A stretch of 17,568 nucleotides of DNA from a virus (Duplodnaviria > Heunggongvirae > Uroviricota > Caudoviricetes), in IMG/VR virus record IMGVR_UViG_2698536618_000023; one strand, written 5' to 3'. Below, in pieces: positions 6,001 to 9,000 of this stretch; position 1 is the stretch's first letter, and each line of letters begins with the position of its first letter. The position numbers are program-made.

Positions 6001-9000
6001 TGATGCGCTGATGTACTTGCTGAAAAGGAATCGTTCCAGAAATGTATCTACGCAATATCCTGAACACGTTACCCAAAATGCCTGTTCCAGAATGATACTC
6101 ACCTATAAATAACCGTCAATATGACGCTCAAGTACTTTCTGTGAGATAATGCAGCGAATTGATACTGACAATTCAACGTCCGTCATCGCTCCCCCAATGT
6201 GTTGAGGTTAGGTAGAAATGATAACAAATACACCACTCCTGCCCCTGTAACCTCCCCTTTTTTATACGCTCATTTTTGCGCACTTTTTCGATCATTACGT
6301 ATCGGTTTCGTTTTGCGCTTCCTGTTGCGTTTCGTTTTTGAGAAAAATGCGCAGTTTTTTGCGCACTTTTTGAGGTGTCTATCCCCCTGCAAGCCGCGTC
6401 ATATCTGGCTTTGCTCTGTTTGTCTGTGTGATCGATTTTGTGATCAGTTTTATGATCGATTTGCGCACTTTTTTGCGCATTTTTTCAGGGATTTTTCACC
6501 CCATCGAAGAGGCTTCTAAGGGGCTGTGAAGTGGGTAGCATTTTGCTGTGATGGAAGGACTACCGCTACTGTCTGATAATGGTGACGGAGGCCGCTATGT
6601 TCGGCTCTGATTGCAGCCTGCCGTATATTCACCAATTTACCTGGCTGTTATTTCCATAACCCGTAATGTCGCCGATCCCGTCTGATTCCCATATCGTCAA
6701 CAGTCTTATTTACAGCATCCTGAAGTTCGCAAGGCATATTTCCCGCCGTCTGGCTATATGTTCTCGCTGCGGATCGGTGTGGGCCTCTTTCATTACGTCA
6801 AGCCAACGAGCGGCGGCTCTTCGCCATAGTCCCTGAGATTCCAGTTGTTCGGCTTTTTTATCAGTTATTGTGTCCATATTAACTTCCGTCTCTTCGCCCT
6901 GTTTCACCCCTGTACTTCGTGCCCCGTAAAGGATCTTCTTTTTTCTGGTCAATCCCCATATCTTTAAGCGTTCTGGTCGCTGCTGCCCTGACGGCGCATA
7001 CATGCCCCCACTCTGTTGTTTTTGGTCTGGTGGCTTTTGCCGTGCATTGCGCCCTTCGTTGGGTAATATAGTGCCTCTCTTCATCAGTTTTTGCCTGTCT
7101 GAACAATTCTCCCCAGCGTTCAGCAGCACGCCGCCAGAGGCCGCTATTCTCCAGCGCTTCAGCCTTGTCATCACGTATCATCTGTACCCCGCCGATTCTG
7201 TCCTTTCAAAATTTGTCTTATGGCTTATTGTATGAGGGATTCATCCTACAACAAGAAAGGTCACTATGAGACTGACGCAATACAAAAAAGAGATCCTCAG
7301 TTACTTCACTCCCGACAATCTGGCGTGGGTTACTGCCGAAATTGGCAGTCCGCCGTTTGATGTCTCCGGTGTGGCTTACCTGCTGCATGGTATGGATTCA
7401 TTCAACAGCCGGTATCAGATCGAATCAACAAGGCGCACGCTGGAAGCTATGGTGCGTGATGGTCTTCTTGAGCGGATTAATGTGTATGAGCGTCGTGAGG
7501 GCGCTGGTGATGGTGTTCGTCGAAAGGTGGCGCGTTATGGCCTGCCTGGTCATTCTGTTGTGGTGCGTGACGGTGAGGGCCGGAACGGTGCAATTGACGG
7601 CGAATGTATACGCATCAATGCTACAGATGTGGTGCTGGTGGAGGGGCAATAAAAAACCCTGAAAGATTTCTCCGGGTGCTCCAGTTGCACGTGGCAGAAA
7701 TCCTTCAGGGTCAGCCGTAACGGGCCTCTGTACAGAGGGCTCCAGTTGCCCAGAGATGAGCACCCGCTACAGCCTGTTGTGATAAGCCGCTTTACAGTGA
7801 GCTCCAGTTGCTCAAAGAGGCGCGTTTTTATCACAACCTGACCGCGATAACCCGCTGTACAGAGGGCTTCAATTGCCCAAAGAGGCGCATTCTTATCGCG
7901 GCATGACGAAATCACCGTGATGTTTTCGTCGTTCACTCATCCCGATGTGTGGGAGATGCACCGGAATGAGTGCCGAAAAGCCGCTGGCTGGCTTCATGCA
8001 GTCGGACTCAGTTGCCCGGGGCGAACACCATCAACGGCCTTTTGGTGGTGATTATAGCGAATCGCGATAATTGAGCAAATACGGTGATGAGATGCGTATC
8101 ACGGTAGCGCTAAATCGTCGCCTGCATCACTGAAGCTGTAATTTCTCCATTCATCCTGCGGATTAATCCCCATCTCTTTCAGCGTTCTGTCTGCGGCCTT
8201 TTTCACATCGCCAAAGGTGACCAGTTGTTCAGGCATACGACGGGTTTTACTGATGCATATCGCCCGACGTCTGGCAGCTTCCTCGCGTTCACTGTCCGTT
8301 TCTGCGTGAAGAAGAACCTCAGCCCATCGGGTCGCCGCACGTCGCCATAAACCGCGCTCCTCAAGTTTCTGTGCCACGCTGTCTGTTATCACTCTCACCA
8401 CCTCCCGTATCCTGCCGCTGGATGTTTTGCTGTTTTATCTGCTCCAGCCTCCACATCAGTTGTTCGCTGGCTGCTGCTTTCTCTTTCTCCGTGACTTCGC
8501 CGCAAGGTTGCCCGTTCAGGTCGTACCGTGGGCCACCAGCAATAATCGCCTTAAGGTATCGCGTCGTGTGAAGGTGTGAGGTTAATGCGCCACGTAATAC
8601 GCCATGACCAATCGCCAGTTCCCGCGCCTTCGCGTCCTGCAACATATCGTGTATCACGCCAGCCTTAAGGGGTTTTATATTCTCTGCCCCAAACAGTTCA
8701 GGCCAGTACTCAGCCAGTCGGTTTATCCTCCTGCGGTTTTTTCGCTGCCGCTTTGTCATGTGCTGCCACGGTATGCGCCGTGATGGTTTACGTGTGGTCT
8801 GGTCCTGTTGTGTGGTCTGCTGGTTCATGTTGTGCTTCTGTCATTCAGAACGGAATATCGTCAGAGAACGGGTCATCACCTCCCGCTGGTGGCTGATTTC
8901 CCTGCTGTCCGGTCTGTCGTTTTGCTCTTTCCTGTGCTTCGGTCGCCTTCCCCTGTTGCCCCCGCTTCCCGCCAGGACGCGCCGAACGGGCACTGATTAC

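Follow-up and report, generated by a model that had tools for sequence, protein, structure and literature searches.

The window analysed here, the whole 17,568-bp stretch of a record filed among the tailed phages (IMGVR_UViG_2698536618_000023), represents an island of Escherichia coli strains that make Shiga toxin (Stx), or STEC, between yicC and dinD. Its sequence is matched in 119-127 of 5,426 complete E. coli genomes (~2%), and the listed carriers include strains of O157:H7, O111:H8 and O103:H2. The minus strand of the island carries a P4-type integrase, AntA/Ash and Rha-type regulators, an Icd-like gene, a primase-helicase, SSB, ProQ/FinO and PerC genes, a repeat region, YeeE and the antiterminator Q. 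Since it combines an integrase, a regulator and a primase-helicase with an adjacent origin, and since the annotation of the window genes includes none for capsid, tail or terminase, the island is an element of the phage-satellite type. Our subject is its repeat region, which lies where a preliminary description had placed it, between the gene for YeeE (YeeE/Sulf_transp; 4838-6076, minus strand) and the PerC genes (6710-7181, minus strand). We consider it moderately likely that this region is a pac-type packaging-initiation signal, which the satellite island copied from a Stx-type helper phage. The following features are referred to below:

6274..6490, unstranded: repeat cluster as first reported, 12-bp repeats with TGCGCA and TGATCR hexamers.
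6277..6282, unstranded: TGCGCA hexamer 1 (TTTTTGCGCACTTTTT), in 12-bp pairing with CGATCA at 6289-6294.
6289..6294, minus strand: CGATCA, which reads TGATCG on the minus strand; this GATC hexamer stands alone and is kept in all islands.
6288..6555 (about), minus strand, which is the sense strand of the terminase small subunit gene (terS): conserved core, 80-90% identical in all ten island variants and flanked by different modules.
6322..6484, minus strand: terS-homologous stretch, corresponding to nt ~126-290 (codons ~43-105) of terS from Stx phages of the 933W/Sp5 type and their relatives.
6348..6365, unstranded: TGCGCA hexamers 2 and 3, at a distance of 12 bp; four island variants lack one of the units.
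6366..6428, unstranded: spacer separating the hexamer clusters, containing CCGCGTCAT.
6429..6458, unstranded: three TGATCR hexamers (TGATCG, TGATCA, TGATCG) at 6429, 6441 and 6453, which are Dam sites at an exact 12-bp spacing.
6462..6479, unstranded: TGCGCA hexamers 4 and 5, 12 bp apart.
6199..6519, plus strand: Phe-rich open reading frame (ORF) of 106 aa, an artefact of the A-poor strand.
6379..6480, minus strand: basic ORF of 33 aa (MRKKVRKSIIK...), 61-88 aa long in other islands, with unrelated C-termini.

Motif counts and shuffles bear out the preliminary description of a TGCGCA cluster with a GATC triplet at 12-bp spacing. TGCGCA starts at 6277, 6348, 6360, 6462 and 6474 and nowhere else in the window, so that the motif search proposed at the time finds all five copies confined to 6277-6479. 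Their total is not above chance (5 observed vs 6.96 +/- 2.46 in shuffles); it is their clustering within 203 of 17,568 bp that is improbable, with P ~5 x (203/17568)^4 ~9e-8 in a simple placement calculation. GATC starts at 6430, 6442 and 6454, with a fourth site at 6290, and a set of three TGATCR spaced 12 bp apart is present a single time in the window, against 0 of 200 shuffles. The repeat units are tandem 12-mers, TGCGCANTTTTT and TGTGATCRNTTT, within a T-rich and A-poor sequence (95 T and 29 A in 217 nt). Each TGCGCA had been described as flanked by runs of 5-6 T. This holds for the downstream side, where T5-T6 follows all five hexamers after 0-1 base, but on the upstream side a T-run is present at only three of the five; the hexamer at 6348 has A5 before it and the one at 6462 has TTT. 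A scan of the region against Rfam 15 returned no family and a single sub-threshold snoRNA match (20.9 bits, compared with a gathering score of 40).

The cluster has its counterpart in a phage gene. Over 6322-6484, the window shares 71% DNA identity with the 5' third of a 268-aa prophage gene, which lies between the lysis genes and the large terminase gene in short-tailed Stx-like prophages and whose product belongs to phrog_370, the terminase small subunit (TerS; E = 2e-119). A DNA match of ~70% is also found in 191 records of Stx-converting phages, including 933W (L0112, ‘putative small subunit terminase’), VT2-Sakai and Min27. In a sensitive DNA search, the homology begins exactly at the first repeat (~6275) in many islands, and the weakest matches of this search lie inside prophage genes. 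TerS residues 43-105 are the only part of the protein that tblastn detects, in all island loci; tblastn and a frame check find neither the terS start codon nor the N-terminal helix-turn-helix (HTH) nor the C-terminal two-thirds in the island copy. Phage terS genes may encode D-H or A-Q in their peptide repeats (DH-type and AQ-type), and the island core aligns about equally well with both. It also mixes their hexamer classes, in that AAAAAATGCGCA AAAAAGTGCGCA are directly followed by three GATC 12-mers. In terS of the 933W type, the counterparts of the hexamers at 6429..6458 are four AAATCGATCAT units, GATC repeats that encode K-I-D-H, and TGCGCA units encode K-C-A-K. In AQ-type terS, the counterparts of hexamers 4 and 5 are AAAAATGCGCA AAAAAGTGCGCA units, encoding the peptide K-N-A-Q-K-S-A-Q. 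Likewise, CCGCGTCAT in the spacer (6394-6402) is common to the islands and to phage terS. A full terS gene with an island-type core was sought in one IMG/VR scan, which gave only another island copy. Judged by its sequence, the cluster is non-coding and descends from the hexamer-bearing segment of a terS gene of the Stx-phage type, in which an A-tract and a palindromic hexamer (TGCGCA or TGATCR) make up each tandem 12-bp unit.

To place the hexamers in their phage context, we collected 297 TerS homologues and examined the terS DNA of eight divergent ones; the terS genes are located at 1978-2784 (minus strand) in locus L006, at 1501-2316 in L017 and from 1501 onwards in L018-L025. All homologues have a linker of tetrapeptide repeats straight after the HTH. 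In phrog_370 TerS, this linker is a variable-number repeat (K-x-A-Q, K-x-D-H or S-Q-I-R), which appears in the DNA as a 12-bp hexamer repeat, and its unit number differs among close relatives (four D-H units in P0004 vs seven in P0002). Seven divergent terS genes, from E. coli, Salmonella, Citrobacter, Dickeya, Aeromonas and Yersinia, contain 5-7 TGCGCA each at nt ~130-300, where the density of the motif is 62 times that of the remainder of the loci (39 sites in 1,330 bp vs 12 in 25.6 kb). Within the same gene, TGCGCA occupies frames 0, 1 and 2 (CTG-CGC-A, GT-GCG-CA and TGC-GCA), and of 26 Ala codons in the A-Q repeats, 23 are GCG, each of them after a codon that ends in T. As TGCGCA is kept regardless of frame, it is constrained as DNA and not as protein, and this codon-level evidence identifies the hexamers as DNA-level elements within phage genes. 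The type of hexamer in turn goes with the DNA-binding domain of TerS: a helix ‘..TART(R/Q)IK’ is accompanied by D-H/GATC repeats and no A-Q (seven cluster representatives, from E. coli and Salmonella), a helix ‘..ARR(Y/H)IK’ by A-Q/TGCGCA repeats and no D-H (90 cluster representatives), and the helix ‘..SAKRYIT’ of a Pectobacterium group by TTCGCA repeats. Phages GER2 and 933W have otherwise similar terS genes, but in place of the four GATC units of 933W, GER2 has five TGCGCA units along with a single GATC.

An array of this kind is the packaging site of phage P1. The P1 pac site comprises 161 bp within pacA, with seven TGATCA/G repeats that contain Dam sites, and its methylation state governs both binding and cleavage (PMC10028697). 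In the P1 record, the pac cleavage points and a site for integration host factor (IHF) lie inside pacA, with four TGATCA at nt 194-228, three TGATCA/G at nt 324-347 and cuts at ~nt 277-283; the GATC units of 933W, at terS nt 142-178, occupy a position equivalent to that of the pacA hexamers. The similarity between PacA and 933W-type TerS is weak but consistent and limited to the N-terminal ~45-130 aa (BLASTP 1e-3; PHROG cross-hits 7e-7 and 2e-4; hhalign 1.9e-4, probability 47%). The 933W record also shows that this phage, like P1, encodes its own N6-adenine methyltransferase. By analogy with P1, we infer that the hexamers are TerS binding sites of a P1-like pac site, that the spacer at 6366..6428 is a candidate cleavage region and that methylation sensitivity of the GATC array is plausible, such that Dam methylation may gate the GATC units.

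The repeats are not peculiar to this window. We compared ten island variants from at least three integration sites (yicC-dinD, yqeG and tRNA-Gly), which differ in their cargo on both sides of the core (YeeE, MazF, extra PerC, Dcm) and have one of two primase types (D5-like or DUF927). In their alignments, the number of repeat units shifts by steps of 12 bp and indels of 1 bp disrupt every reading frame, and each of the ten variants keeps 3-5 TGCGCA and 3-5 TGATCR. Variation is about half as frequent in hexamer columns (9 of 48) as in the remaining ones (56 of 172), a difference that is suggestive and not decisive (p = 0.07). The core is a fixed backbone element of this satellite family.

An element that has neither terminase nor capsid genes needs a packaging signal in cis, and the island probably uses its terS-derived copy for packaging by Stx-type helpers. 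Induction of a resident Stx-type phage would be followed by excision of the island and by its replication from the P4-type origin at 9552-9772. Through the N-terminal domain of TerS, the helper terminase would then bind the hexamer array, much as PacA binds TGATCA/G in P1 pacA, to start packaging with a cut nearby, perhaps in the 6366-6428 spacer, and a phage-sized head would be filled with concatemers of the island. The cleavage might be timed, as in P1, by Dam methylation at the three to four GATC hexamers, and the presence of both hexamer classes might widen the helper range.

Several observations weigh against this proposal. The identity of the core to any known phage terS is only ~70%, which makes its recognition by a present-day helper TerS uncertain; in addition, we found no mapped pac site of 933W/Sp5-type phages in the literature. 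The association between helix and hexamer type is significant by Fisher's test (p = 7e-9), but this value overstates the case, as the co-variation rests on perhaps only two or three independent evolutionary events, and since P1 PacA itself has an ‘ARRY’ helix yet uses TGATCA hexamers, the correspondence is no general code. While P1 pac has an IHF site, the IHF consensus WATCAANNNNTTR has no match in window 6000-6700. For O157 Sakai, a strain that may or may not carry the island, no excision of prophage-like elements was seen after mitomycin C (PMC2669165). Finally, conservation of the core does not exceed that of the flanking genes (80-90% vs 88-100%).

This last point also speaks for the main rival, namely that the region is an inert relic: a terS fragment left by an old recombination with a Stx-type phage, which persists by descent, slips in its repeats and has no function. 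Such a decaying coding remnant would be expected to keep a TerS-like frame that is still partly free of stop codons, as seen in the window over 102 codons; the excess conservation of the hexamers is only marginal; and the close relationship of the island variants means that their shared retention of the core may reflect ancestry. Still, all ten variants keep the same boundaries despite repeated exchange of DNA on both sides, and what they keep is exactly the hexamer-bearing sub-fragment and no other part of terS. The hexamers have moreover been amplified and not eroded, with five TGCGCA compared with one or two in the closest DH-type phages, and the need of the island for a cis signal would go unanswered. 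We regard an inert relic as unlikely.

A further possibility is that the array binds a protein of the island, be it a regulator or a TerS retargeter similar to Rpp, and not helper TerS alone. Related satellites in other Enterobacteriaceae contain dense arrays of TGCGCA, TTCGCA or TGCGAA in non-coding DNA downstream of perC (L026 8818-9287, with 13 TGCGCA in 470 bp; L027 10378-10616; L029 7819-7881 and 8421-8659), with only TATCSGTTTCGTTTTGCGC in common with the window core. Their similarity to terS is short, with matches of 16-24 nt that are not significant evidence of a terS origin, and this suggests a motif of the island family; these arrays could act in packaging by other types of TerS or be bound by an island protein. 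The cos-type phage-inducible chromosomal islands (PICIs) of E. coli indeed use Rpp to shift TerS specificity to an island-specific cosB (PMC6739421), and the unit mix of the island array is unlike that of every known phage array. However, no candidate binder was found in the island, where the conserved 128-aa neighbour has no Pfam or PHROG family, and the window-type core is demonstrably derived from terS. We consider binding by an island protein improbable, and it would overlap with a role in packaging rather than exclude one.

The preliminary description had instead seen a candidate methylation-sensitive control region. On this reading, Dam and SeqA would regulate transcription of the downstream YeeE-Q or the upstream PerC genes. 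Three GATC sites 12 bp apart suit SeqA binding, the region sits between two minus-strand gene blocks and upstream of the Q module, and core and Q remain linked even in an island that has no PerC/ProQ module. A promoter scan, however, finds no sigma-70-like promoter site in 6274-6560, and the nearest one, at 6119-6092 on the minus strand, lies outside the conserved core and within the variable YeeE module. In phages, the same sequence is internal to the coding region of terS, and in the islands the cargo between core and Q varies (YeeE, MazF, small ORFs), which leaves no fixed relation between a promoter and a gene. What stands of that description is a real, non-random and non-coding cis element; a role as a promoter or SeqA switch is quite improbable. 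As the core has no promoter and is homologous to terS, and as TGCGCA and GATC represent alternative forms of a single 12-bp repeat system, which goes with the DNA-binding domain of TerS, the function indicated for the region is DNA packaging and not transcription.

We also considered whether the minus strand of the region encodes a small basic protein, or whether TGCGCA-N6-TGCGCA hairpins and the T-runs after them act as intrinsic terminators. RefSeq annotates ORFs of 61-74 aa here in two islands, and a pattern scan gives three terminator-like hairpins in the core, but either is very improbable. Frameshifts change the length and C-terminus of the minus-strand ORF between islands; in the window, it is 33 aa long, has no family match and no plausible ribosome-binding site, and it is probably not a gene. 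The plus-strand ORF of 106 aa, which had rightly been set aside as an artefact, is long because the A-poor strand has few stop codons: it matches no Pfam family, its frame is broken in three of the ten island variants, its N-terminal part extends into non-homologous flanks, and it is unannotated in every listed RefSeq genome that carries the sequence. With no family matches and no conserved frames, both ORFs were rejected as genes. The hairpins were rejected as well, as two of the three lie on the plus strand, antisense to all neighbouring genes, and as they are not conserved among islands, four of which have lost the second hexamer of the 6348/6360 pair.

The last alternative concerns replication, and three features elsewhere in the window bear on it or on the helper of the island:

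9552..9772, unstranded: crr/ori-like origin of the island, in which the P4 type-1 iteron TGTTCACC/GGTGAAYA occurs 11 times and in both orientations, directly 3' of the primase gene.
9786..11609, minus strand: P4 alpha-like primase-helicase (D5_N, DUF5906, Pox_D5).
4133..4531, minus strand: Q antiterminator, 82% aa identity to Q of Stx phages of the VT2-Sakai/933W type.

Could the cluster itself be the replication origin, with TGCGCA iterons around an AT-rich, GATC-bearing unwinding element akin to the oriC 13-mers? The 13-mers of oriC resemble the GATCNNTTTTNT 12-mers of the cluster. An arrangement of two repeat sets on either side of an AT-rich, GATC-containing stretch has the look of an origin, and it is in such terms that PICI origins have been described (PMC6092414). 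Yet this is hardly conceivable, as the canonical P4-type origin sits elsewhere: all eleven TGTTCACC/GGTGAAYA sites of the window fall within 9552-9772, and they match exactly the repeats that P4 crr and ori have under the annotation ‘ori type 1 repeat’. Islands with a DUF927 primase have different iterons (GGCGGATAYGGGC) at the same position (L004 10404-10615). As the iterons differ with the primase type, the origin follows its initiator; the hexamer core, the same in both types of island and separated from the primase by 3.3 kb and about seven genes, does not. The argument that different primases share the core is weakened by a common N-terminal domain of 150 aa, the only part shared between the D5-like primase and its DUF927 counterpart (L004 10713-12848, minus strand; 44% identity, E = 1e-29). 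In view of these iterons, beside the primase and different in the DUF927-type islands, we rejected the cluster as the origin, which lies outside of it. As an aside, the primases of these sister islands look like a swappable helicase module behind a common N-terminus.

The Q gene is a second module that points to the same type of helper as the terS fragment. It is 82% identical to Q of 933W/VT2-Sakai at the protein and at the DNA level. The DNA homology ends with the gene; no pR'/qut homology follows downstream (3700-4130), where repeats of the CCCYAAANNGRGGGA type are found instead, at ~3880-3990. Taken together with the proposed packaging signal, this could mean that an undescribed satellite family of Stx phages parasitises its helpers by two stolen modules, a non-coding pac mimic with both hexamer classes and a Q933-type antiterminator. 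We put this forward only tentatively, and as a whole it is rather doubtful. If it were true, the two hexamer classes could allow packaging by more than one helper lineage, the antiterminator could switch on the late operon of the helper, including stx, and phages of the 933W/Sp5 family would for the first time have defined pac sites, namely 12-bp hexamer repeats in terS that are independent of the reading frame and whose type follows the TerS HTH. Satellites that carry a cos or pac site of their helper are established (PMC6092414, PMC6739421). What would be new is a Stx phage as the helper, and we found no description of satellites exploiting Stx phages in the literature.

The danger posed by E. 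coli O157 and related strains comes from Stx phages. PerC-type regulators and a Q933-like antiterminator are encoded on the island, whose listed carriers include major serotypes of enterohaemorrhagic E. coli. A pac signal would explain how a widespread STEC island moves from strain to strain with neither capsid nor terminase genes, it would offer a concrete, mutable sequence for studying terminase recognition in Stx phages, and the relation between hexamer type and TerS helix would become a simple rule that predicts which phage mobilises which island. Likewise, a satellite-encoded Q that acts on the helper late promoter could also affect toxin output.

The surroundings of the cluster have features of their own. 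Upstream, two ORFs of the PerC family overlap out of frame (6710-7174 and 6879-7181, minus strand); RefSeq marks one of them as a pseudogene, and other islands have two intact tandem PerC genes. Next to them is the sole plus-strand gene of the island (7266-7652), which encodes the aforementioned 128-aa protein. It is 92-99.7% conserved among the islands and has 375 homologues across Enterobacteriaceae satellites, with one in the context of a P1-like phage-plasmid (L028, beside RepL/DarA genes). Between this gene and the convergent PerC gene at 8099-8401 (minus strand) lies a non-coding stretch of 446 bp (7653-8098) with 3-5 copies of a 62-65-bp repeat (..CCGCTGTACAGAGGGCTCCAGTTGCCCAAAGAGGCGC..). 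Most islands have this stretch, at 87-92% conservation, but the tRNA-Gly island (L014) lacks it. Further away, an ORF of 507 aa (12766-14289, minus strand) fuses the N-terminus of an AntA/AntB antirepressor to an Ash-family domain; in strain 2013C-4081, this region is split into antirepressor, Ash (partial) and Icd-like genes. At the other end, arm-type repeats (TTGCCTCAAAT / TGAGGCAAC) point to an island boundary near 3700-3790, in which case the 543-aa tyrosine recombinase (1613-3244) and the KilA-N ORF (1-564) on its left would belong to a different, adjacent element; strain 2013C-4081 has an IS2 at this place instead.

Among known elements, P4 shares with the island the type of integrase, the alpha-like primase-helicase, the TGTTCACC iterons directly 3' of the primase and an Icd-like gene. 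It differs in its P2-type cos site and in sid, psu and delta, none of which the island has, whereas the island has the hexamer array, SSB, ProQ/FinO, PerC genes and a lambdoid Q. Sp7 of Sakai, another P4-like defective element, is packaged despite having no head genes (PMC2669165). The cos PICIs of the EcCICFT073 type are likewise E. coli satellites with an integrase, a primase and origin, PerC-type genes and no capsid genes. Their helper-like packaging site leads to packaging by the helper terminase, with multimers filling full-sized heads (PMC6092414; PMC6739421). They use a cos site of the lambda/phi80 type (cosN, cosQ and an island-specific cosB) together with the adaptor Rpp, while no Rpp-like gene was recognised in the island, for which we predict a pac-type hexamer array derived from a PacA-like terS coding sequence and helpers among the short-tailed Stx phages. 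EcCIEDL933, which was considered as a match, was rejected, as it is a capsid-forming PICI, unlike the island. Those Staphylococcus aureus pathogenicity islands that have the pac or cos sequence of their helper, such as SaPIbov5, also acquired a cis packaging signal instead of encoding a TerS of their own (cited in PMC6092414), but they belong to Gram-positive bacteria, and their sequence and terminase family are unrelated.

On the level of gene architecture, the phage hexamers recall the ori iterons in gene O of lambda and 933W, which serve replication and not packaging and are unrelated in sequence, but similarly form a cis repeat array in the linker-coding part of a gene whose product binds it (933W record). 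The closest parallel is P1 pac. The island differs from it in that its array lies in a non-coding fragment outside of any cognate TerS gene, although its phage relatives do have it in terS; in the predominance, with five copies, of the TGCGCA class, which is not a Dam site and is not used by P1; in having no IHF consensus; and in its 2 + 2 + 5 arrangement of clusters, compared with 4 + 3 in P1. What the two systems have in common is an array of palindromic hexamers (TGATCA/G) with Dam sites at ~11-12-bp spacing, which belongs to the 5' third of the gene for the recognition subunit, and a search of the island for clustered TGATCA/G finds them at 6429, 6441 and 6453, together with CGATCA at 6289.

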